A stretch of DNA of 14,897 nucleotides from a virus. This document shows positions 183 to 8,961 of the stretch, piece by piece. The stretch lies in UHGV virus genome UHGV-0249804; one strand, given 5' to 3'. Each line of letters starts with the position of its first letter. The stretch's first letter is position 1. Below the pieces are notes generated by a model. It saw only the letters and a list, made by a program, of their open reading frames with translations. It was not told the origin of the DNA and made no database searches. Both the position numbers and the translations under genes were made by a program.

Positions 183-1346
183 TTACACATCACTAGTACC
201 TTCCTTATTTTTTGACTGGGACAAATTTGGGACCGATGGGTTCAGGATCGAGTCTATTTGCCGTGCATGTTCGGTAAGGTGATTAGGTGCGAGGTGAGCA
301 TATCGACGAACCATTTCGATAGACTCCCAGCCTCCCATTTCCTGTAACACTGACAACGGGACTCCGGCTTGAACCAGCCAACTTGCCCAGGTGTGTCTCA
401 AGTCGTGAAATCTGAAATCATCAATACCTGCTCGTCTCAGCGCCGCTTTCCAGGCTGTGTTTGCGTCATACCGCATCTTCCTGACCGTTGGCGCTTTCGT
501 TCCGTCTGGTTTGGTACAGCTTTCCTTGTACACAAATACCCAACGGTGATGATTCCCGATTTGTTTTTTCAATACGCGACATGCAGTATCATTCAGCGCA
601 ACGCCAATTGCGCGGTTTGATTTACTCTCTTCCGGGTTTATCCATGCCACCCGGCGCTGCATATCTATTTGTTGCCATTCAAGGTTGATGATGTTCGAGC
701 GTCTTAAGCCTGTTGCCAGTGCAAATTCAACAACAGACTTTAATGGCTCCGGACATTCATCAATCAGCCTTTGTGCTTCATGGGGCTCCAGCCAGCGGAT
801 CCGTTTATTCTTTGGTTGAGGCACTTTAATAATTGGTGCCTTATCCAGCATTTTCCATTCACGCTCTGCGGCTCTTAGTAGGGCCTTTATAAATGAAAGA
901 TGCGTAGCCTTCGTTGCAACGGACGCTGGTTTTGGCGTGTATTCTGGAACAGGTTTCCCTTTTTTTCTGCATGCTTCTGCCCTGAGTTTCCAGTTTTCCT
1001 CATGACGCCGGTTCGTCATTTTCTGCATTGCTGAATAAATTTTTGATTCAGTAATGTCTCTTAGTTGCATTCCTGCGAAATGTTGAAGCCAGAATCCGAT
1101 CCGGCTTTTGTCATCGTCCAGTGATTTTTTATGTGCTTTCTCTTCAAGCCACCTGACACACGCTTCCTCGAACGTTATATCAGGTATTTCACCAAGTTTG
1201 CTGACCCGCCATGCTTCAGCCTTTAGCTTGTCATGGAGTTCTGTCGCCTGCCTTTTGTCCTTTGTTCCAAGAGACTGTTTAAATCTTTTACCGTTCGGCA
1301 ATGTGAAACTGGCGTACCATATTTCACCTCTGCGGAAGAGTGACAT
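183..1346 (-). CDS. int: tyrosine site-specific integrase, P22 Int-like
   Basis: 387-aa ORF, recognised from memory as near-identical in its N-terminus to P22 Int ([47 protein letters not shown]...). C-terminal [16 protein letters not shown]...RYAHL carries the catalytic R-H-R-Y signature. Ends 15 nt from the tRNA. Confidence 0.95.
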
Positions 1347-2240: not shown

Positions 2241-2767
2241 TTGCGTAACTCCGATAACTCGTTAAAACGTTCCATAAACATCCCGTAGGCATGGCCCGGT
2301 GCCTGTGGAATCACTTTGAACATCTCTGTTGCCGGGATACCTTCCAGTACAGGCCAGAAAGAGCCATCATCAAGCCCGAGATCGCGGCGTTCGGTTGCCA
2401 GCATAATGAGATCGGCATATTTCACTGGCGTGCTCATAACAGGAGGTAACCCGTATTTCTCACGTATTACGGCGTCTATTTTTTCTTCCATCCGTTTATA
2501 GTCAGGAAGAAGTCGTTTCAGTGGTGCGGGGATGTCCTGGCAATATGCTTCTGTTGCATCATGCATTAAAGCTTCAAAAGCAAATTCCTGTGGCACCAGC
2601 TGGCTGCAAAGCACCGCATGTTGGGCGACACTGTAGAAGTGTGAAAGATGTCCTGCAAAGCGACAGATATTTGAAAGGGAAACCGCGATATCGTTAATAA
2701 CGATGTCGTCTTTATTTATCCTGTCATAATAAAAATGCTTCCCGGAAAAAGTTTTAATAAATGACAT
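2231..2767 (-). CDS. HD-domain metal-dependent phosphohydrolase-like protein
   Basis: H...HD signature (AGHLSHF...AQHAVL...ALMHDATEAY). Preferred start is the ATG at 2767 (MSFIKTF), preceded by GGAG with 6-nt spacing; the ORF-track start at 2794 is a GTG without an RBS. Confidence 0.65.
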   Translation of the reverse strand: MSFIKTFSGKHFYYDRINKDDIVINDIAVSLSNICRFAGHLSHFYSVAQHAVLCSQLVPQEFAFEALMHDATEAYCQDIPAPLKRLLPDYKRMEEKIDAVIREKYGLPPVMSTPVKYADLIMLATERRDLGLDDGSFWPVLEGIPATEMFKVIPQAPGHAYGMFMERFNELSELRKCA

Positions 2768-2991
2768 TTTGTTCTCCACGTATATGCGCTGCACCGCGCT
2801 GAATTCGGGTAAAAGGAAGCCCTCACCGTCCGGCGATTATTGAGTCAATTACATTTCCATAAATGCCCCCGTAGGGGCGGTTAGTTTCTCCACAAAACAG
2901 AGAAGAACACCTGCGGTGGCAGCCGCCCGGATGGATTGGGTTACCTCATGGCAAAAAGTCCCGGATTCAGTGTGATGATGACGAAGGCATT

Positions 2992-3186
2992 ATGATAGAC
3001 AGTTGTGTGGCTCGGTTGAGAAAGTATAAACCAGAGGAATATGAGCTAATCATAGCTCACTTTGTCATTGGTATCTCATTACGCACTATTGCCAAGAAGA
3101 GAAGATGTTCAGATGGCACAGTTAGGAAAAAATTGCAGACTGCCTTGGGGTTTGTTGAAGGATGTATTTGTTTGATTGAGTTCTAA
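2992..3186 (+). pseudogene. C-terminal remnant of a Q-like late antiterminator (sigma region-4-like HTH)
   Basis: 64-aa ORF with an HTH-like segment (ISLRTIAKKRRCSDGTVRKKLQTALGFV), sitting at the early/late junction just upstream of the lysis region. Only about 200 bp lie between it and the upstream gene, too little for a full Q. Family assignment is from memory of Q-protein C-termini. Confidence 0.45.
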
Positions 3187-3188
3187 AA

Positions 3189-3212
3189 AGAATGAGGCGT
3201 AAGCCTCATTCT
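3189..3212. terminator. bidirectional rho-independent terminator between convergent genes
   Basis: Perfect 10-bp stem AGAATGAGGC / GCCTCATTCT with GTAA loop, A-run on the left and T-rich tract on the right. Overlaps the stop codon of the minus-strand membrane-protein gene. Confidence 0.7.
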
Positions 3213-3775
3213 TTATCTTTAATTATAAGTTTCGATTTTTCATCATGCATTTTGTCTATCATAAAATACATACCTAATGCCGTTGTGTATATAATGTTGC
3301 ATATGGTACTTAAATAAATAAACAAAAGTAATGATTTCACTAGTGGATATGATGAAAGGTGTAATTCCTTGATGCTTGCGCTGGTTAGTTGAAGTGCTCC
3401 TCCAACGAAATACAGCGCGATGCTCATAAACGCTAAATAACCAAATAGATAAGTGAGGAATTTACGCCTTGTAAGTTTTTTACCTTTTAATACCGGAGGT
3501 ATGCCATGCATAACTTCATCCATACCATCCTTACTGAAGGTTGCAACTGCAGCCATAGATGCAATGTAAAAACCAGATAGTATTTGAAGTATCCCGTTTA
3601 CTAAAGACACAAGACTATCCTTCCCGAGAAGTGAGATGGTTTTCGGTAAGTAATAGATGGATAAAGTAATAATTGCAGCAGTGAAAATGGGTAAAACCCA
3701 GTCAAAAAATCGCTTCTCAGGATGCTTTATGCGTAGGTAGTCTATAGGTGTAAAAACCTTAGATAAAACATACAT
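3206..3775 (-). CDS. small polytopic membrane protein (190 aa, four predicted TM helices), second gene of the AT-rich cargo operon
   Basis: ATG at 3775 preceded by AAGGAGG with 6-nt spacing; the ORF-track start at 3868 would overlap the upstream gene. Four hydrophobic segments of about 21-29 residues (about residues 22-43, 55-80, 106-128, 145-173) and a charged C-terminal tail. Sampled 60-mers are about 32% GC. Confidence 0.75.
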   Translation of the reverse strand: MYVLSKVFTPIDYLRIKHPEKRFFDWVLPIFTAAIITLSIYYLPKTISLLGKDSLVSLVNGILQILSGFYIASMAAVATFSKDGMDEVMHGIPPVLKGKKLTRRKFLTYLFGYLAFMSIALYFVGGALQLTSASIKELHLSSYPLVKSLLLFIYLSTICNIIYTTALGMYFMIDKMHDEKSKLIIKDKE

Positions 3776-3807
3776 ATATGCCTCCTTTTGACAGGTTTTC
3801 CATGCCT

Positions 3808-4743
3808 TCACTTTAACATAAAGTTTTGCATTTTTGCGAGAAGTTCTTCGTGAAATGCTGTTTGGCAAACGGCAATTGTTGATGCCAACACTGCTTTTTC
3901 ACGTTGTGCCAATTGTGCTGTTGCGAGTTCCTGTAGGCTCATTTCTTTTCCGATGGAAACAAGATCTGATGAAACGCGTTTATTTTTGTCTTTATAAGAA
4001 ATTCTTAACATTGTATACTTTCTACCACGAAGTTTGTCATATGCAGACTTAATCGCCTTAATTGCACCCTCTCCGCGACGTATTTTTGTTGATAGCTTTA
4101 GTGTTTCTTCTTCAACCATTACTGTGCCATCATCATCTAAAGAGTTATCTTTAAAGCGACGAGTAGCAGTAAGTCCACATAAATAACCAGTGGATAGAGA
4201 TTGCTCAAGTGTTGTTGCAGCCAAAAAATCAATGTCGAAAATAGGTCTGCACTTAAGTTCTTTTTTCCCTCCTGAACGGATAAAGGAAAAATTATTTTCT
4301 CGCAGGAAATAAGTTAAAGCTTGGGCTAATAAACCTCTGGTAATGCCCGGAACTTCTTCTAAAATTGCCTCATAACAATCTTGGAATGATGAGTCGCTCG
4401 GTCTTTTTTTGATAAGCACATGAGCAGAGTACCCCATACCTTCATCATTTTGCTTTTTCTCAATTCTGGTTTCACCAGTTTTTATGTTGGAAAAGGCGGG
4501 ATCAGAAGCATCTTTATTTATATATTGAAAAAGCAATTTCAGGTAATTTTCATCGTCTTTTATGGATAGCAATCTTATGACAGAACGTCCTTTGTTTAAT
4601 TCGTAAACAGCTTCTCCTTTGTTATAGCGATTTTTTAAAACAGGAATACAGTTTACTAAAGGCATGTCAGGTGCGTCATTAGGATACTTCTTTAAAGTAA
4701 CCTGGCATTTGATCATGAAACGTTCATTATCTCCCAAGAGCAT
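3808..4743 (-). CDS. hypothetical 311-aa soluble protein, first gene of the AT-rich cargo operon; possible nucleotidyltransferase-like motif
   Basis: Long ORF with an AAGGAA RBS 6 nt before the ATG, in AT-rich DNA (sampled 60-mers about 25-37% GC). No family recognised; residues 158-172 (GGKKELKCRPIFDID) fit a minimal hGG-x10-DhD pattern. Confidence 0.8.
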   Translation of the reverse strand: MLLGDNERFMIKCQVTLKKYPNDAPDMPLVNCIPVLKNRYNKGEAVYELNKGRSVIRLLSIKDDENYLKLLFQYINKDASDPAFSNIKTGETRIEKKQNDEGMGYSAHVLIKKRPSDSSFQDCYEAILEEVPGITRGLLAQALTYFLRENNFSFIRSGGKKELKCRPIFDIDFLAATTLEQSLSTGYLCGLTATRRFKDNSLDDDGTVMVEEETLKLSTKIRRGEGAIKAIKSAYDKLRGRKYTMLRISYKDKNKRVSSDLVSIGKEMSLQELATAQLAQREKAVLASTIAVCQTAFHEELLAKMQNFMLK

Positions 4744-4822
4744 ATCTGTTCCTTATACGAGCACTAATACTGATTGCTGTTTTTAGTTCAGCAGAACCAA
4801 AGGTTAACTGATTGTGCTTGAT

Positions 4823-4852
4823 AGTATATATTTTTCACTAACGCGTACGCAA
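4823..4852 (-). promoter_or_regulatory. putative promoter of the AT-rich two-gene operon
   Basis: On the minus strand, TATACT (-10) with TTGCGT about 18 bp upstream, roughly 80 nt before the ATG at 4743. Hexamer match only. Confidence 0.3.
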
Positions 4853-4898
4853 AAAGTATTGTATCGTGTTAAGAGTGGTTACTTCGCCACACAACTTA

Positions 4899-4922
4899 AA
4901 CCCGCCGCTGAGCGGTTTTTTT
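4899..4922 (+). terminator. candidate rho-independent terminator (short GC hairpin plus T7 run)
   Basis: CCGC-TGA-GCGG hairpin followed by TTTTTTT, in the intergenic region upstream of the small ORF and methyltransferase. Confidence 0.4.
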
Positions 4923-5044
4923 GTACCTGTAAACTTGGTGCAGTACAGTAAACACGCTGGTGGTCGTGAATACTGACTTTTTATCTTGCTGGCTTTTTAG
5001 ACAAGAGTTATTGGTATGTCATGTTAACCAGAAGGAAAAAAGAC

Positions 5045-5239
5045 ATGCTAAAACAGCTAGATATGACAGAAACGGCGAAAGTTGTTTTTAATGAATTAAG
5101 CGTCGAACCGGCAACAGTCGGGGAGATAGCACAAAACACATACCTTTCACGCGAACGCTGTCAGTTAATACTGACCCAGCTGGTTATGGCGGGGCTGGCA
5201 GATTACCAGTTCGGCTGTTACAGACGCCTTCAGCAATGA
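5045..5239 (+). CDS. small protein (64-72 aa), possible winged-helix DNA-binding regulator
   Basis: ORF 5021-5239. The ATG at 5045 has an AAGGA RBS 9 nt upstream; the 5021 ATG has none. The C-terminal part (TVGEIAQNTYLSRERCQLILTQLVMAGLADYQF) resembles small PapI/FaeA-type winged-helix proteins by pattern only. Confidence 0.45.
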   Translation: MLKQLDMTETAKVVFNELSVEPATVGEIAQNTYLSRERCQLILTQLVMAGLADYQFGCYRRLQQ

Positions 5240-5388
5240 AGGGCTTTTAATTTGTGAAAATGGGCGGCTGGTGGGTGTTGGTAGCACCTGCCAGCCATTC
5301 GCTCATGCTTACTGGTCACAAGCGAACCACGGCCCACTGCTTTAGCGCAAAAGCAAAGTGAGCCTACCAGAGTTACGCTTACTGATCC

Positions 5389-6441
5389 ATGAAAAATACT
5401 GTAAAAATAAACAGTGTTGATTTAATCAACGCTGATTGCCTGCATTTTATTCAGTCCCTGCCTGATGATTCCATTGACCTGATAGTTACCGATCCGCCGT
5501 ACTTCAAAGTGAAGCCCAACGGCTGGGACAATCAGTGGGAAGGGGACGAAGATTACCTGAAGTGGCTGGACCACTGTCTGGCCCAGTTCTGGCGGGTACT
5601 GAAACCATCCGGAAGCCTTTACCTGTTCTGTGGACATCGCCTGGCATCTGATATCGAGATCATGATGCGTGAACGTTTCAACGTGCTTAACCATATCATC
5701 TGGGCGAAGCCGTCTGGACGTTGGAATGGGTGTAATAAAGAAAGTCTGCGCGCATATTTTCCCGCCACAGAGCGTGTTCTGTTTGCTGAACATTACCAGG
5801 GGCCATATCGCGGCAAAAGTGACGGCTATGCGGCAAAAGAAAGGGAACTCAAACAGCACATAATGGCACCGCTGATTTCGTATTTCAGGGATGCTCGTGC
5901 CGAACTGGGTATAACGGCAAAACAGATTGCCGAAGCCACAGGTAAGAAAAATATGGTTTCCCACTGGTTTGGTAGCAGTCAGTGGCAGTTGCCGAACGAG
6001 GCTGACTACCGGAAGTTGCAGGCACTGTTTTCTCGTATAGCGGCAGAGAAGTTTCAGGAACAACAACTGGAACAACCACACCACCAGCTGGTGGCATCTT
6101 ATGATTCACTGAATCGCAAATATTCTGAATTGCTGGATGAGTTTAAATCTCTCCGGCGCTATTTCTCCGTATCAGTCTCCGTGCCTTATACCGATGTCTG
6201 GATGCATAAACCCGTTCAGTTCTACCCGGGTAAACATCCGTGTGAGAAACCGGCGGATATGCTCAGGCAAATAATCAATGCCAGTAGTCGACCAGGCGAT
6301 CTGGTTGCTGATTTCTTTATGGGATCCGGTTCCACAATAAAAGCAGCAATGGCGCTGGGGCGTCGGGCGTTAGGTGTTGAGCTTGAGTCAGAGCGGTTTA
6401 ACCAGACGGTGAAAGAGGTAAGTGAACTGGTGGGGAAATAG
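5389..6441 (+). CDS. DNA N6-adenine/N4-cytosine methyltransferase, beta class (DPPY ... FxGxG order)
   Basis: 350-aa ORF with motif IV DLIVTDPPY near the N-terminus and the AdoMet-binding motif I DFFMGSGST near the C-terminus, typical of N6_N4 amino-methyltransferases. A roughly 100-aa insert (about residues 150-260) is rich in helix-forming residues. GC is about 50%, unlike the AT-rich operon. Confidence 0.9.
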   Translation: MKNTVKINSVDLINADCLHFIQSLPDDSIDLIVTDPPYFKVKPNGWDNQWEGDEDYLKWLDHCLAQFWRVLKPSGSLYLFCGHRLASDIEIMMRERFNVLNHIIWAKPSGRWNGCNKESLRAYFPATERVLFAEHYQGPYRGKSDGYAAKERELKQHIMAPLISYFRDARAELGITAKQIAEATGKKNMVSHWFGSSQWQLPNEADYRKLQALFSRIAAEKFQEQQLEQPHHQLVASYDSLNRKYSELLDEFKSLRRYFSVSVSVPYTDVWMHKPVQFYPGKHPCEKPADMLRQIINASSRPGDLVADFFMGSGSTIKAAMALGRRALGVELESERFNQTVKEVSELVGK

Positions 6442-6446
6442 TTCTG

Positions 6447-6470
6447 GTGGCCACGTTGCGTGGCCTTTTT
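6447..6470 (+). terminator. rho-independent terminator downstream of the methyltransferase gene
   Basis: GGCCACG-TTG-CGTGGCC hairpin followed by TTTTTATTT, starting 8 nt after the methyltransferase stop. Confidence 0.6.
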
Positions 6471-6518
6471 ATTTCCAACACAGCACCCGCAAATAATCGC
6501 GAGGTGAGAGATGACGAA

Positions 6519-6854
6519 ATGCCTCATAACCCAAATACCTGGCCAGACTGGCTGGAGTTGTTTCAGAGCTGGTGGCGTGGAGATACGCCACTGGGCGCAG
6601 TGATTATGTCGATCGTTATGGCTGGCTTGCGCATTGCCTATTTTGGCAGTGGTGGTGGCTGGAAACGAAAAACGCTCGAGATTTTGCTCTGTGGCGCTCT
6701 GACACTGACCTTTGCATCCGCTCTTGAGTATGTCGGATGGCCTAAATCACTTTCTGTTGCCATTGGTGGTGGGGTGGGGCTGATCGGGGTCGATGCTATT
6801 CGTGGGGCTGCAATGAGGGTAATCGGTAACAAGTTTGGTAGCTCGAAGGAGTAA
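6519..6854 (+). CDS. putative holin (class I-like, three hydrophobic segments)
   Basis: Immediately upstream of the endolysin gene. ATG at 6519 is preceded by GAGGTGAGAG; the ORF-track start at 6447 lies inside the terminator hairpin and is rejected. Three hydrophobic stretches and a charged C-terminus. Confidence 0.75.
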   Translation: MPHNPNTWPDWLELFQSWWRGDTPLGAVIMSIVMAGLRIAYFGSGGGWKRKTLEILLCGALTLTFASALEYVGWPKSLSVAIGGGVGLIGVDAIRGAAMRVIGNKFGSSKE

Positions 6855-6857
6855 TTT

Positions 6858-7334
6858 ATGCAGGTACTAAATCCCCAGCGTAAAGCTTTCCTTGATATGG
6901 TGGCCTGGTCAGAAGGAACGGATAACGGGCGACAACCGACACGTAACCACGGTTATGACGTTATTGTCGGTGGAGAACTCTTCACTGATTACTCCGATCA
7001 CCCTCGCAAACTTGTCACGCTAAACCCGAAACTCAAATCAACAGCTGCAGGCCGTTATCAACTTCTTTCACGCTGGTGGGATGCTTACCGTAAACAGCTT
7101 GGCCTGAAAGATTTTTCTCCAGAAAGCCAGGACGCTGTAGCTCTGCAGCAGATTAAAGAGCGTGGTGCTTTACCGATGATTGACCGCGGCAATATTCGTC
7201 AGGCAATCGACCGTTGCAGCAATATCTGGGCTTCACTGCCGGGCGCTGGTTATGGTCAGTATGAACATAAAATTGGTGACCTGATTGCAAGGTTTAAAGA
7301 GGTTGGCGGGGTGGTAAATGAAGTTGAGCTATAA
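6858..7334 (+). CDS. R: endolysin, lambda R-type lytic transglycosylase
   Basis: 158 aa, recognised from memory as near-identical to lambda R over most of its length (...NQRKAFLDM.AWSEGTDNGRQ.TRNHGYDVIVGGELFTDYSDHPRKLVTLNPKLKST.AGRYQLLSRWWDAYRKQLGLKDFSP...). Confidence 0.93.
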   Translation: MQVLNPQRKAFLDMVAWSEGTDNGRQPTRNHGYDVIVGGELFTDYSDHPRKLVTLNPKLKSTAAGRYQLLSRWWDAYRKQLGLKDFSPESQDAVALQQIKERGALPMIDRGNIRQAIDRCSNIWASLPGAGYGQYEHKIGDLIARFKEVGGVVNEVEL

Positions 7335-7710
7335 GCTGGTTATTTCTGCTTTCCTCCTGACTTTATTCGGTTCTCTCGTCTGGTCAGCTAACCACTACCA
7401 CAGCAAATACCAGCGCGAAAAGAAACGCGCTGATGAGGCTGTACAAAATGCCGAATCAGCAACTGCCATTACCAATAACGTCCTGCAATCAATGCAAATC
7501 ATCAATACAGTTCTGGAGGCTAACCAGCATGCAAAACAGCAGATCGCACTGGAGTCACAGAGAACCCAGGAAGATATCAAAGTGGCTGTTGCGAATGATG
7601 ATTGCGCTTCACGTCCTGTGCCTGCTGCCGCTGCTGACCGGTTGCGGAAGTACGCGGACAGTTTACGTACAAGTTCCGGTGATACCGCTACCGGCAAGTC
7701 TGACCGCTGA
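7318..7710 (+). CDS. Rz: i-spanin Rz (inner-membrane spanin subunit)
   Basis: Follows R with overlap. N-terminal TM segment (LVISAFLLTLFGSLVWSANHY, compare lambda Rz ...CLSWAVNHY) then a coiled-coil-like periplasmic region. 130 aa is at the short end for Rz. Confidence 0.75.
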   Translation: MKLSYKLVISAFLLTLFGSLVWSANHYHSKYQREKKRADEAVQNAESATAITNNVLQSMQIINTVLEANQHAKQQIALESQRTQEDIKVAVANDDCASRPVPAAAADRLRKYADSLRTSSGDTATGKSDR

Positions 7711-7870
7711 AACCCCGCAACCAGCCATTCCCGATCCGCTGACCTATGGAGGCAGTCTGGATTTGAATGTGAGTCTGTTGTCAGCACTGACTAACTGTAA
7801 TCGGGATAAAACTTCTATTCGTAAAATAGAAGCAGAGAGTGTCAGTAAACGGATAAACCTTAATAAGTAG
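7595..7870 (+). CDS. Rz1: o-spanin Rz1 (outer-membrane lipoprotein), +1 frame, overlapping and extending beyond Rz
   Basis: In the +1 frame relative to Rz: MMIALHVLCLLPLLTGC with lipobox LTGC, followed by a Pro-rich mature region. An alternative start at 7529 has a GGAGG RBS 9 nt upstream but would give a 39-aa leader. The ORF ends 160 nt after the Rz stop. Confidence 0.6.
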   Translation: MMIALHVLCLLPLLTGCGSTRTVYVQVPVIPLPASLTAETPQPAIPDPLTYGGSLDLNVSLLSALTNCNRDKTSIRKIEAESVSKRINLNK

Positions 7871-8355: not shown

Positions 8356-8961
8356 ATGCCACCACGAACTCCTAAAGCCTGCCGGGTCCGAGGGTGCGGC
8401 AAAACGGACAGTAAAACCACCGCCACGGCGACGCAGCAGCGTAACGTGGTTGCCAGCACCCTTCGTACGACCGCAATCAGCGAAGCGGCGTATGCCGTCA
8501 TCCGATTGCCTGCGCCAACAACTTCCGCGGTGATGCAGAATGCCACAGTGGGGCAGGCAACAACACCTGCGCAGAGCACCGGTTGGCCTTCCGTCACGCA
8601 TCCGGCACTGAACAATGCACCGGCGGTGAAAAACACGGTTGACCTGCCGACGTGGGAAGAACTGACTGACATTCGCGACACACTGAATACGGCAATTGAT
8701 AAGGAGTTGTCCCGTACAACCAGTGATGCGCTGTTTCTGGCGCTGCGCCGGGTGAAAGCAGATCTGAATGCGGATATCAACACGCGCCTTGAGCAGTCTG
8801 CACGGATCATTCATCGCACACCGGATGAGGTTTTACCCGCGCTGGTGCTGGCGGCGACCTGGTTTGATAACGCGGCGCGTGACGCGGACATTATCCGGCG
8901 TAATGCCATTACGCATCCCGGCTTTGTGCCGGTGATCCCTCTGAAGGTGCCAGTGCAATGA
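8356..8961 (+). CDS. tail/baseplate-associated protein, probably a 5'-truncated remnant of the gene preceding Mu P (N-like)
   Basis: GC-rich ORF directly upstream of, and coupled (ATGA overlap) to, the gpP/D-like gene. Its reading frame runs back into the AT-rich island without an upstream module, and the first ATG in GC-rich DNA is 8356. Homology to Mu N is by position only. Confidence 0.45.
   Translation: MPPRTPKACRVRGCGKTDSKTTATATQQRNVVASTLRTTAISEAAYAVIRLPAPTTSAVMQNATVGQATTPAQSTGWPSVTHPALNNAPAVKNTVDLPTWEELTDIRDTLNTAIDKELSRTTSDALFLALRRVKADLNADINTRLEQSARIIHRTPDEVLPALVLAATWFDNAARDADIIRRNAITHPGFVPVIPLKVPVQ

Follow-up and report, generated by a model that had tools for sequence, protein, structure and literature searches.

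A structured leader RNA and a small winged-helix ORF upstream of an M.EcoGII-type methyltransferase gene in a defective lambdoid prophage

What does a solitary DNA methyltransferase do for the phage that carries it, and how is its expression controlled? Both questions are raised by a 14,897-nucleotide stretch of DNA from the virus genome UHGV-0249804 (the window), in which a methyltransferase gene follows a small ORF of the same orientation. A sequence-only reading of this locus had described a beta-class amino-methyltransferase with its own terminator and a small upstream ORF, carried as prophage cargo, and every element that it listed was found where it had been placed. The two genes of the module are the following.

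5045..5239, plus strand: small ORF, 64 aa, homologue of SfV orf47, winged-helix protein (homology, coding signature, AlphaFold2)
5389..6441, plus strand: beta-class N6-adenine DNA methyltransferase of the M.EcoGII family, 350 aa (PF01555, PADLOC, homologues)

The 350-aa product matches Pfam PF01555 (N6_N4_Mtase) at 147.5 bits (cutoff 26.7; E 7.1e-43) and PADLOC MTase_II at E 7e-151. DPPY (motif IV) occupies residues 35-38 and FMGSG (FxGxG, motif I) residues 310-314, giving the order motif IV at the N-terminus, target-recognition region, motif I at the C-terminus; both motifs are unchanged in an alignment of the window enzyme with those of SfV and phage 1720a-02. The PF01555 match and the motif positions bear out the assignment to the beta-class amino-methyltransferases. 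The match extends over residues 29-341 on a 221-position profile, and comparison of match span with profile length gives ~90-100 extra central residues, in agreement with the central insert of ~100 aa noticed earlier; judged by alignment, these residues correspond to the target-recognition domain (TRD) plus linkers of M.EcoGII, a domain described as a four-helix bundle (PMC11551740).

The closest of the named relatives compared is SfV orf48 (98% identity), followed at full length by the engineered ancestor Anc291 (88%) and, at 70%, by SUPREM, likewise an engineered ancestor. M.EcoGII itself is 80% identical to the window enzyme (90% positives, full-length over 349 residues with 2 gaps), a comparison made with a sequence machine-read from the PDF of Table S1 of PMC11551740, which contains some OCR errors, such that a few residues may be wrong. 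The TRD aligns to that of M.EcoGII without gaps, and by a hand count from the alignment ~19 of 78 residues in the region differ. The enzyme of phage 1720a-02, called very similar to M.EcoGII by Murray et al., is 80% identical. On these comparisons, the placement by REBASE or HMM that the sequence-only reading had called for puts the enzyme in the characterized M.EcoGII family, and the 350-aa gene is read as an orthologue of prophage-borne M.EcoGII, essentially SfV orf48. It is not a new methyltransferase; the gene is very common in phages, and this copy of it is unremarkable.

The module was found in 2567 of 5426 complete E. coli genomes (~47%), a commonness that the sequence-only reading had overlooked.

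The surroundings of the module place it in a late operon, the elements of which are listed here.

4838..4890, plus strand: block present in same-Q-type relatives only (CTAACGCGTACGCAAAAAGTA...TGTTAAGAGTGG), probable late promoter pR' and Q-utilization site (upstream-region alignment)
4900..4922, plus strand: tR'-type intrinsic terminator, stem 4904-4916 followed by T7 (terminator scan; SfV annotation at the equivalent site)
4985..5021, plus strand: non-coding block CTTGCTG-N-AGAGTTAT-GTATGTCA, 5' of the small ORF (invariant columns in 15 loci from different genera)
6449..6474, plus strand: intrinsic terminator between the methyltransferase and holin genes (terminator scan; SfV annotation)
6519..7870, plus strand: lysis cassette of the same late operon (Pfam; E. 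coli D1 and SfV annotation)
6519-6854, plus strand: holin, 111 aa as annotated in E. coli D1 (Pfam PF05106, E 5e-27)
6858-7334, plus strand: endolysin (annotation of identical E. coli D1 DNA; SfV)
7318-7710, plus strand: Rz (annotation of identical E. coli D1 DNA; SfV)
to 7870, plus strand: Rz1/LysC (annotation of identical E. coli D1 DNA; SfV)

SfV is annotated in the order Q, terminator, orf47, orf48, terminator, S, R, Rz; E. coli D1 has identical DNA between an intact Q gene and the holin; and in 1720a-02 the module lies between Q and stx2A, with the equivalent of block 4838-4890 directly after the Q stop codon. The similarity of most relatives to the window starts at 4838-4845, and among 15 aligned loci most have tR' at a distance of 100-130 nt before the small ORF. 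Block 4985-5021 is a poor match to sigma-70 and was not reported by the promoter scan. The sole sigma-70-like hit near the module, at 4804-4832, was rejected as a shared late promoter because the DNA there is insert-specific. Downstream, the terminator attributed to the methyltransferase by the sequence-only reading is confirmed as a 7-bp stem (six G-C pairs) at 6449-6465, followed by TTTTTATTT; it is also annotated in SfV, and 29 of 57 distinct downstream sequences carry compensatory stem variants. A holin start at GTG 6447 would overlap this terminator, and the start at 6519 annotated in E. coli D1 was adopted. Lying as it does between Q/tR' and the lysis genes, the methyltransferase would therefore be a Q-dependent late gene, and the idea of free-standing cargo with its own transcription unit does not hold.

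In lysogens, pR' is constitutive and its transcripts are terminated at tR' (PMC7547250). The enzyme encoded in the window would likewise be silent in a lysogen because late-promoter transcripts are proposed to end at tR'. After induction, RNA polymerase modified by Q would pass tR', the small ORF, its spacer, the methyltransferase gene, and the terminator behind it, and would then continue into the lysis and morphogenesis genes.

What the enzyme does once made can be judged from its relatives. M.EcoGII, Anc291, and SUPREM have all been expressed and are reported to be largely non-sequence-specific, and the window enzyme, by homology, most likely methylates adenine in any sequence context. Its role is most likely broad anti-restriction, shielding phage DNA from host restriction enzymes, as the sequence-only reading had proposed: the enzyme would methylate the adenines of replicating phage DNA whatever their context, and progeny genomes would therefore be protected in the next host against many m6A-sensitive restriction systems. 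M.EcoGII-type enzymes are toxic when expressed (PMC5778455; PMC12707154), and confinement to the late phase would avoid the toxicity of genome-wide methylation. Two further expectations of the sequence-only reading change in meaning. Prediction of a target is moot, since the hallmark of the M.EcoGII family is that it has no target sequence; and the failure to find a methylation motif attributable to the gene, offered as grounds for refutation, is the expected outcome because homologues are silent in lysogens (PMC5778455; PMC6602927). REBASE-based annotation tags such homologues 'nonspecific', and the methylomes of the lysogens are without signal (PMC6602927).

The same reading had offered, as an alternative, an orphan methyltransferase with sequence specificity that serves to regulate host or phage genes epigenetically. 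Beta-class orphans such as CcrM do act as regulators, the window enzyme has a partial NCBIfam match to CcrM as well as PDB matches, and its TRD is unlike that of M.EcoGII at roughly a quarter of positions. Yet its relatives found to be non-specific are 80-88% identical to it (M.EcoGII, Anc291; SUPREM 70%) with no gap in the TRD alignment, homologues yield no methylation motif in lysogen methylomes, and the gene is placed behind tR' in the late operon; an epigenetic role is also unlikely because constitutive expression of an enzyme of this type is toxic. We consider this alternative very improbable.

The methyltransferase is solitary in the window. Searches for a nuclease family match gave none (Pfam with ten window proteins, NCBIfam with seven, PADLOC with four), and together with a structure model of the divergently transcribed 311-aa protein they support the earlier statement that no partner restriction endonuclease is present. 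The 311-aa gene belongs to a separate insert.

3206..4743, minus strand: low-GC two-gene insert, outside the module (PADLOC PDC-M53)
3808-4743, minus strand: 311-aa protein, component of the PADLOC candidate system PDC-M53, RexA-like model
3206-3868, minus strand: 220-aa membrane protein, component of the PADLOC candidate system PDC-M53

That the methyltransferase and the 311-aa protein form a conventional restriction-modification system, the latter as nuclease, is hardly credible. In its favor are the divergent orientation of the two neighboring genes and the initial lack of annotation (Pfam) for the 311-aa protein, but this protein and its 220-aa neighbor match both components of PDC-M53, the 311-aa model is similar to lambda RexA and RdgC and shows no nuclease fold, and a methylase without specificity has no means of setting a cognate site. 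The pair also differs from the module in GC content (0.36-0.38 vs 0.46-0.51). Of the 2575 E. coli records that match, just 4 carry it together with the module at >=99% identity, and it is missing beside the module in SfV, 1720a-02, most relatives, and nearly all E. coli copies. The separate acquisition of the 311-aa gene suspected in the sequence-only reading is upheld. The pair looks RexAB-like; no mention of PDC-M53 was found in the literature searched. What is inserted between Q and the late promoter varies among relatives. Because the insert here is a RexA-like/membrane-protein pair, prophage-borne defense genes may be worth seeking at this site.

Upstream of the insert lies what is left of the antiterminator gene.

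2941..3186, plus strand: 3' remnant of antiterminator Q gene (Pfam PF06530, E 2e-19)

The remnant covers only positions 52-113 of the 118-position PF06530 profile; its ORF from ATG 2992 has 64 aa, and its alignment to the intact 115-aa Q of E. coli D1 begins at about window position 2941. Relative to D1, the first ~34 Q codons and everything further upstream are deleted, and the window prophage is without immunity, replication, terminase, and head genes. The prophage is SfV/e14-like and lambdoid, and the methyltransferase copy in the window is probably silent, and may be inert, because Q is truncated and the prophage defective. Expression would therefore require a compatible Q provided by a co-resident prophage.

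The small ORF was described earlier as a 64-72-aa frame that may encode a winged-helix regulator. Its codon-position identity of 0.83/0.84/0.54 across 20 loci shows that it is truly coding, and only the 64-aa form is conserved; the longer alternative (5021-5239, 72 aa) is not. The fold stands up: the AlphaFold2 model (pLDDT 88.5) has the topology H1-b-H2-H3-wing (b-hairpin), and a fold search gives TM-scores of 0.82-0.86 to IclR-type wHTH domains (Foldseek TMq), with further matches to the winged-helix domain of SelB bound to the SECIS RNA hairpin (TMq 0.77) and to winged-helix dimerization domains of O-methyltransferases. The product is 97% identical to SfV orf47 and belongs to PHROG 331 (E 2.5e-34), a family listed as of unknown function; Pfam TrmB (PF01978; 17.6 bits, cutoff 25.6) and DprA_WH (17.5 bits, cutoff 22.9) score below threshold. 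At NCBI the family carries the name 'TrmB family transcriptional regulator'. No discussion of SfV orf47/orf48 was found in the literature searched.

Helix 3 (C39-L51) is invariant and largely hydrophobic, whereas the wing is variable. This helix is conserved as protein: its synonymous codons vary freely, and an overlapping RNA constraint was for that reason rejected as the source of its conservation. The protein has two cysteines only, C39 and C58, of which C39 alone is invariant, and a net charge of about -1 counted from the sequence. Its slight acidity, hydrophobic helix 3, and unconserved wing mean that a role in protein-protein contacts fits as well as nucleic-acid binding.

Between the small ORF and the methyltransferase gene lies a conserved spacer of 149 nt, which the sequence-only reading had overlooked. 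The following features were found in it and at its border.

5227..5253, plus strand: short hairpin CCUUCA GCAA UGAAGG followed by a U-rich run, weakly terminator-like (terminator scan)
5253..5388, plus strand: conserved structured leader RNA of the methyltransferase (conservation, fold, pairing statistics)
5260-5306, plus strand: leader hairpin P1 (fold and covariation)
5314-5323 paired with 5377-5387, plus strand: leader helix P2, ending 2 nt before the AUG
5331-5364, plus strand: leader hairpin P3 (fold and covariation)

The border hairpin contains the stop codon of the small ORF in its 3' strand. Its stem sequences vary by taxon yet remain complementary, it is kept where the small ORF is replaced, codons 61 and 63 show no synonymous variation, and its energy is modestly better than that of shuffles (-11.4 vs -8.9 kcal/mol).

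The spacer is conserved, non-coding, and base-paired. Its length is 142-154 nt in 20 loci, and its nucleotide identity is 0.84 vs 0.52-0.54 at neutral third-codon sites. As a coding region it offers a 33-codon mini-ORF from a conserved ATG, rejected because the frame has <=7 codons in 11 of 21 sequences; a tRNA-like remnant was likewise rejected, the only tRNA reported by ARAGORN being tRNA-Thr at 93-168. The leader folds with a z-score of -3.2, 90-91% of cells are paired vs 26-45% with partners slid, and 11-12 pairs are changed on both sides vs 4.0-4.1 +/- 1.0-1.1 in shuffles (0/500), 3-4 pairs with compensatory changes lying in P2. Since the majority of leader positions do not vary, the covariation is limited to these 11-12 pairs, and the sequences tested for it are those from which the structure had been derived. 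G-U pairs that are conserved (columns 19-61 and 73-147 in alignment A5) place the structure on the sense strand, where a search with the covariance model gives a single copy at each locus. When run on raw MAFFT alignments, RNAalifold returned structures that were incomplete or out of register, and realignment with the covariance model left the apical register of P1 unfixed. The leader was sampled in loci down to about 64% methyltransferase identity, the related-locus search having returned 98-99% copies only. An additional helix, UGUGA 5253-5257 with UCACA 5316-5320, is compatible with the alignment (88% paired) and is hypothetical because it shows no compensatory change. Rfam 15 gave nothing overlapping the leader in a search of positions 2700-7000 (E up to 1), and two chance-level hits only in 5200-5420 searched alone (E up to 10).

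No Shine-Dalgarno sequence was found at the methyltransferase start codon. The energetic case for an occluded start site is weak: the start region opens at a cost of 6.5 kcal/mol, against 5.1 kcal/mol when the sequence before it is shuffled, and in many homologues the two values do not differ significantly. We infer a regulatory role for the leader and a ligand for the small protein. The structured leader of ~135 nt and the missing Shine-Dalgarno sequence would govern translation of the methyltransferase as a second layer of control, on which the co-transcribed 64-aa winged-helix protein would act in a manner analogous to Com on the mom mRNA of phage Mu.

The spacer could instead act as DNA, with the small protein a conventional transcription factor, repressing or activating through an operator or promoter located there, or the spacer a recombination 'linker' joining phage modules, and with no translational control at the RNA level. 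The best fold matches of the small protein are DNA-binding domains, the NCBI family name speaks of a transcriptional regulator, P1 is a near-perfect inverted repeat and hence a possible operator, and a CCAGAGTTA motif occurs upstream of both the small ORF and the methyltransferase gene; two loci (L046 and L093) have a recombination breakpoint within the leader, and the weak occlusion of the start fits as well. However, the G-U pairs and compensatory changes are strand-specific and indicate pairing in sense-strand RNA, conservation extends over the whole ~135 nt, beyond an operator of 15-20 bp, and the promoter scan found no sigma-70-like promoter in the spacer, while the wing, the usual DNA contact, is unconserved and the TrmB and DprA_WH hits are sub-threshold. 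Action at the DNA level is unlikely on this evidence.

Whether the small protein acts on the leader at all depends on their linkage. Of 131 informative loci, 118 combine the small ORF, the leader, and the methyltransferase and keep the AUG at a constant distance, and the small ORF still stands beside the methyltransferase across Enterobacterales genera in which it has diverged to 48-55% identity. The association can be broken in both directions: at least six loci have the leader and a full-length methyltransferase without the small ORF, and five (L017, L046, L093, L121, and L142) have the small ORF without the methyltransferase. The small protein is therefore not an obligate partner. It might even be functionally unrelated to the methyltransferase, as an independent late gene or a protein-binding factor in, for example, anti-defense, leaving the leader to act alone; its slight acidity, its invariant hydrophobic helix surface, its resemblance to the dimerization domains of O-methyltransferases, and the lack of an assigned function for PHROG 331 would suit such a role. 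The frequency of co-occurrence at constant spacing and its persistence at ~50% identity argue otherwise, as does the narrowness of the small-protein family, which in the loci examined is essentially confined to the context of this module, and we regard an unrelated function as doubtful.

A control module made of leader and small protein is preferred here, and by analogy with Com the winged-helix protein is the leader's most likely trans-acting partner. Together they would probably keep a toxic enzyme off until late in infection. A more specific version, in which the leader represents a new family of cis-regulatory RNA that closes a start without a Shine-Dalgarno sequence and the winged helix, as an RNA-hairpin-binding protein comparable to SelB on SECIS, opens or locks it, making the pair a functional analogue of Com and mom that arose independently out of unrelated components, is possible but tentative. 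The broader model, of a Q-gated late gene of the M.EcoGII type that would serve anti-restriction and would be controlled a second time through leader and winged-helix protein, we consider likely.

M.EcoGII is a widely used reagent, and its native control has been described merely as silent in lysogens and toxic if expressed. The folded leader is apparently undescribed; the M.EcoGII papers PMC5778455 and PMC11551740 contain no discussion of an upstream ORF or leader. A selected, length-invariant structured leader with a tightly linked winged-helix ORF provides a concrete candidate for the native control of enzymes of this type. If the proposal is correct, it would be a second, independent case of the Com-mom solution for expressing a dangerous DNA-modifying enzyme.

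Among known systems, M.EcoGII (also M.EcoGI; E. coli O104:H4 C227-11), Anc291, and SUPREM share with the window enzyme the beta class, a length of 349-350 aa, and the order DPPY, central four-helix TRD, FxGxG. M.EcoGII-type enzymes are prophage-borne, as is that of the window; the window enzyme belongs to the SfV orf48 sub-lineage and M.EcoGII to the 1720a-02/M.EcoGII sub-lineage. The beta-class methyltransferases of solved structure (M.RsrI, M.MboIIA, CcrM, DpnA, and PDB 8urk/9c3u) have the catalytic Rossmann halves and motifs IV and I in common with it, matching at E 1e-13 to 3e-24 in two separate stretches, but lack a counterpart to its central TRD. The divergent pair shows no detectable sequence similarity to lambda RexA-RexB; its site is between Q and pR' instead of the immunity region, and its membrane protein is longer than RexB.

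The Mu com-mom operon, like the com-hin1523/nma1821/hia5 operons of Mu-like prophages, has a small ORF directly upstream (62 aa for Com, 64 aa here), and in Mu and, judged by homology and position, in the window a co-oriented small ORF precedes a toxic, broad-specificity adenine-modifying enzyme with late expression. In Mu, the hairpin bound by Com is adjacent to the structure that inhibits mom translation (PMC6483171), and an RNA structure at the translation start, predicted in the window, is common to mom and the methyltransferase gene. In FluMu and Pnm1, com homologues precede non-specific adenine methyltransferases (PMC3299994), m6A methylases as that of the window would be. The proteins are not homologous: Com is a CCCC zinc finger and the small protein a winged helix with two cysteines, while Mom is an acetamido-transferase and the Hia5-type methyltransferases are Dam-like, in contrast to the beta-class enzyme here. 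The leader, with ~135 nt and three helices, is far longer than the structure in Mu, and the likeness draws on the genes and the predicted RNA, the energetics of start-site occlusion being weak.

SfV orf47-orf48 (with mEp460, cdtI, phiP27, 1720a-02, and Stx2 phages) is the same gene pair at 97-98% protein identity, and SfV likewise has terminators on either side, a lambda-type holin, and the pair placed behind Q; in SfV, however, an intact Q lies directly upstream, whereas in the window Q is truncated and the PDC-M53 insert separates it from the late-promoter region. Other lambdoid cargo under pR'-tR'-Q control, such as the stx genes and the StxS transcript, occupies the same slot between Q/tR' and the lysis genes, and for it, as for the window module, expression is expected only after Q-mediated antitermination (PMC7547250). 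Compared with stx-type cargo, that of the window would be a DNA-modification enzyme serving the phage itself, accompanied by a conserved leader RNA.

The 350-aa methylase of the window is a further member of a well-known enzyme family, and it is carried in a module with a small ORF and a structured leader RNA whose helices are called P1 to P3:

5021/5045-5239, plus strand: small ORF 5' of the methylase (64-aa form from 5045)
overlapping the small-ORF stop codon, 5' of the leader, plus strand: stop-codon hairpin, followed by a U-rich run
5260-5306, plus strand: P1, a long leader hairpin
5314-5323 paired with 5377-5387, plus strand: P2, which stops 2 nt 5' of the methylase AUG
5331-5364, plus strand: P3, a leader hairpin
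5389-6441, plus strand: methylase ORF, 350 aa (Pfam N6_N4_Mtase, E 7e-43)

The motifs described in the sequence-only reading are present in the enzyme (DPPY at residues 35-38, FMGSG at residues 310-314), and a strong terminator (6449-6465) directly 3' of the ORF bears out the claim that the gene has its own. The ~100-aa central insert is the counterpart of the four-helix-bundle TRD (residues 160-237), with its linkers, in PMC11551740; in solved beta-class structures only the two catalytic halves match. Of 5426 complete E. coli genomes, 2567 contain a match to the DNA at 4750-6560; the match covers 80% or more of that stretch in 1909 of them and is 100% identical in strains D1 and MLI104K1. Matches also occur in 49 phage records, e.g., SfV, mEp460, cdtI, phiP27, 1720a-02, and Stx2 phages. 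At the protein level, identity is 98% to SfV orf48 and 80% to the 1720a-02 enzyme, which Murray et al. call very similar to M.EcoGII (PMC5778455), a prophage-carried, 349-aa beta-class adenine methylase that methylates any sequence context, is unexpressed in lysogens, and is harmful to the cell under constitutive expression (PMC5778455). Over its full length the window methylase is 80% identical and 90% similar to M.EcoGII, whose sequence, machine-read and hence slightly imperfect, was taken from the SUPREM paper (PMC11551740, Table S1); identity is 88% to the reconstructed ancestor Anc291 and 70% to SUPREM, both reported as largely non-sequence-specific (PMC11551740). This homology argues strongly for a window methylase that is non-specific for sequence.

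The position of the module points to late expression. The annotated order in SfV is Q, terminator, orf47, orf48, terminator, S, R, Rz; in strain D1, whose SfV/e14-like prophage is apparently complete, identical DNA separates an intact 115-aa Q from the holin; and in 1720a-02 the module lies between Q and stx2A. About 120 nt 5' of the small ORF is a tR'-type terminator (stem 4904-4916 followed by T7), also found in most aligned relatives, and 5' of this terminator a block (4838-4890) is common only to loci of the same Q type, as would be expected of a Q-specific late promoter and qut site, which we infer it to be. In lambdoid prophages pR' is constitutive, and without Q transcripts end at tR' (PMC7547250). 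Taken together, the gene order, the terminator, and this pR'-tR' logic mark the methylase, on sequence grounds, as a Q-dependent late gene, which would explain why the methylation signal of its homologues is absent in lysogens (PMC6602927). The earlier observation of a methylase with a small upstream ORF is confirmed and its interpretation right in outline: the methylase is solitary and phage-borne, with anti-restriction as its likely role, while the proposed alternative of epigenetic regulation is unlikely, as is a conventional restriction-modification system.

The window copy itself lies in an incomplete E. coli prophage, whose other features are as follows:

93-168: tRNA-Thr (CGU), beside the integrase gene
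183-1346, minus strand: integrase, adjoining tRNA-Thr and followed by early genes on the minus strand
2992-3186, plus strand: antiterminator Q fragment (Pfam PF06530, covering only profile positions 52-113 of 118)
3187-3214: 12-bp perfect hairpin AAAGAATGAGGC GTAA GCCTCATTCTTT, separating the stop codon of Q from the end of the 220-aa gene
3206-4743, minus strand: PDC-M53 pair (311-aa and 220-aa genes), GC 0.36-0.38
3' of the methylase region, plus strand: lysis genes (lambda-type holin, endolysin, Rz spanin)

Beyond the lysis genes come baseplate-type genes, which take their names from the annotation of matching records. The tRNA-Thr (CGU) gene, directly next to the integrase gene, is probably the prophage attachment site, and the hairpin at 3187-3214 probably a bidirectional terminator serving the convergent genes. 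Relative to the 100% identical prophage of D1 and MLI104K1, two stretches are deleted: ~7.5 kb of immunity and replication genes with the first ~34 Q codons (junction near 2941), and the terminase, portal, capsid, tail sheath, and tube genes (junction near 8405), the second deletion beginning within an HNH gene. This arrangement was found in no complete E. coli genome, so the window comes either from a defective derivative or from a join made in assembly. The methylase gene is intact; it can be transcribed only if another prophage provides a compatible Q, and is of no use to the progeny of this defective element.

The divergent 311-aa protein had been considered as a formal restriction partner and judged not to have been acquired with the methylase, a judgment that holds: it and the 220-aa protein match both components of the PADLOC candidate system PDC-M53 (E 1e-17 and 2.7e-39), and the low-GC pair occupies precisely the interval from the Q stop codon to the pR' block. 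The best match is at least 99% identical in only 4 of 2575 matching E. coli records, and the matches listed, except D1 and MLI104K1, start 3' of the pair, at about 4838. Neither protein has a match in Pfam or NCBIfam, and a Foldseek search with an AlphaFold2 model (pLDDT 81) of the 311-aa protein gave none; its 220-aa partner contains four hydrophobic segments. A RexAB-like exclusion module, with no relation to the methylase, is the best reading of the pair, and this RexA-like insert is a second point of value in the window. Other relatives hold different genes in the same slot (window 3187-4837), identified by eye from sequence: a Dam-like methylase and a 463-aa ParB-like protein (L014:1480-3777), a 250-aa protein (L010:2743-3495), and a 291-aa NYN-like protein (L004:562-1437). 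This stretch from Q to the late promoter is a possible hotspot for cargo or defence genes.

What the module adds beyond the known enzyme is a conserved leader RNA and a linked winged-helix ORF; no paper describing either was found. The spacer between small ORF and methylase is 142-154 nt long in 20 loci from about 15 species, and the mean identity of its core (0.84) equals that of first and second codon positions in the genes on either side, against 0.52-0.54 at third positions, which indicates purifying selection at the nucleotide level. A coding spacer was rejected: in 11 of 21 sequences its 33-codon mini-ORF is interrupted. Scanning viral contigs with a degenerate motif enlarged the set to 144 loci (a further nine hits were due to chance); of the 131 informative loci, 118 have small ORF, leader, and methylase side by side, with a fixed AUG offset. 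The sense strand of the spacer folds with z = -3.2, and the methylase AUG is preceded by GCUUACUGAUCC, without a Shine-Dalgarno sequence. In the raw alignment of 42 non-redundant sequences, 90% of cells in the helices pair, vs. 29-43% with partners slid, and 11 pairs are changed on both sides vs. 4.0 +/- 1.0 in shuffles (0/500); a model-based alignment agrees (91% paired, 12 pairs changed on both sides). From its conserved G-U pairs the structure can be assigned to the sense strand, and a search of 412 kb with a covariance model gives exactly one sense-strand copy at each locus; no Rfam family matches. The leader exists and is under selection. The stop-codon hairpin is retained even where the small ORF is replaced, and is only modestly more stable than shuffles.

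The small ORF is truly coding, as identity at codon positions 1/2/3 (0.83/0.84/0.54) demonstrates. Its conserved form is the 64-aa one, with AAGG 9-10 nt 5' of the start at 5045; the ATG at 5021 is missing in other genera. The family is narrow and confined to Enterobacterales (285 clusters at 90% identity, the best 120 of which are at least 78% identical), with only 63 representatives among 1.84 billion proteins. The winged-helix fold suspected earlier is recovered in canonical form by the model of the protein (pLDDT 88.5). Structures on which this model can be superposed include IclR-type DNA-binding domains (TMq up to 0.86), the SECIS RNA hairpin-binding domain of SelB (0.77), and O-methyltransferase dimerisation domains. 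In lineages diverged to ~50% identity, helix 3 (C39-L51) is invariant in protein while synonymous codons vary, and the wing is replaced. Nineteen repeats of a giant protein (P0121, 5774 aa) match the 64-aa ORF (~25% identity, E 6e-33), which suggests reuse of the winged-helix unit as a repeat module. An invariant non-coding block, CTTGCTG ... AGAGTTAT ... GTATGTCA, lies 5' of the small ORF in all genera (4985-5021), and its motif CCAGAGTTA recurs at 5367-5375, 14 nt 5' of the methylase AUG; these match a sigma-70 promoter poorly and may be a shared binding site or an additional RNA element.

Several relatives carry rearranged modules. Four viral contigs (L046, L093, L121, L142) retain the small ORF and P1, but an AT-rich 237-aa gene (about +118 to +831 relative to the leader motif) has taken the place of P2, P3, and the methylase, with the recombination breakpoint within the leader; short overlapping ORFs, possibly tRNA genes, follow, and further on L093 has a 617-aa ORF resembling a Stx-phage nanS-p-type esterase. 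In four others (L044, L087, L117, L132) a 220-231-aa protein with an N-terminal hydrophobic segment replaces the small ORF, with stop-codon hairpin, leader, and methylase still present; in L073 the small ORF is simply deleted.

A small ORF, followed by a structured leader that runs up to the start codon and by the gene of a toxic late enzyme that modifies DNA, makes an arrangement resembling Mu com-mom, in which 62-aa Com exposes the start signals by binding a hairpin beside a structure that inhibits translation (PMC6483171). Against a simple Com-like model, the energy needed to open the start region is only 6.5 kcal/mol vs. 5.1 in controls, at least six loci have leader and full-length methylase without the small ORF, five have the small ORF without the methylase, the small protein is slightly acidic, and no covariation was found in the alternative helix UGUGA:UCACA. 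On these grounds a cis-regulatory role for the leader is likely, if only modestly so, and a Com-like role for the small protein possible but rather doubtful. The likeness to Mu is one of arrangement, with parts unrelated to Com and Mom, and extends to Mu-like prophages in which com homologues are found 5' of non-specific adenine methylases (PMC3299994).
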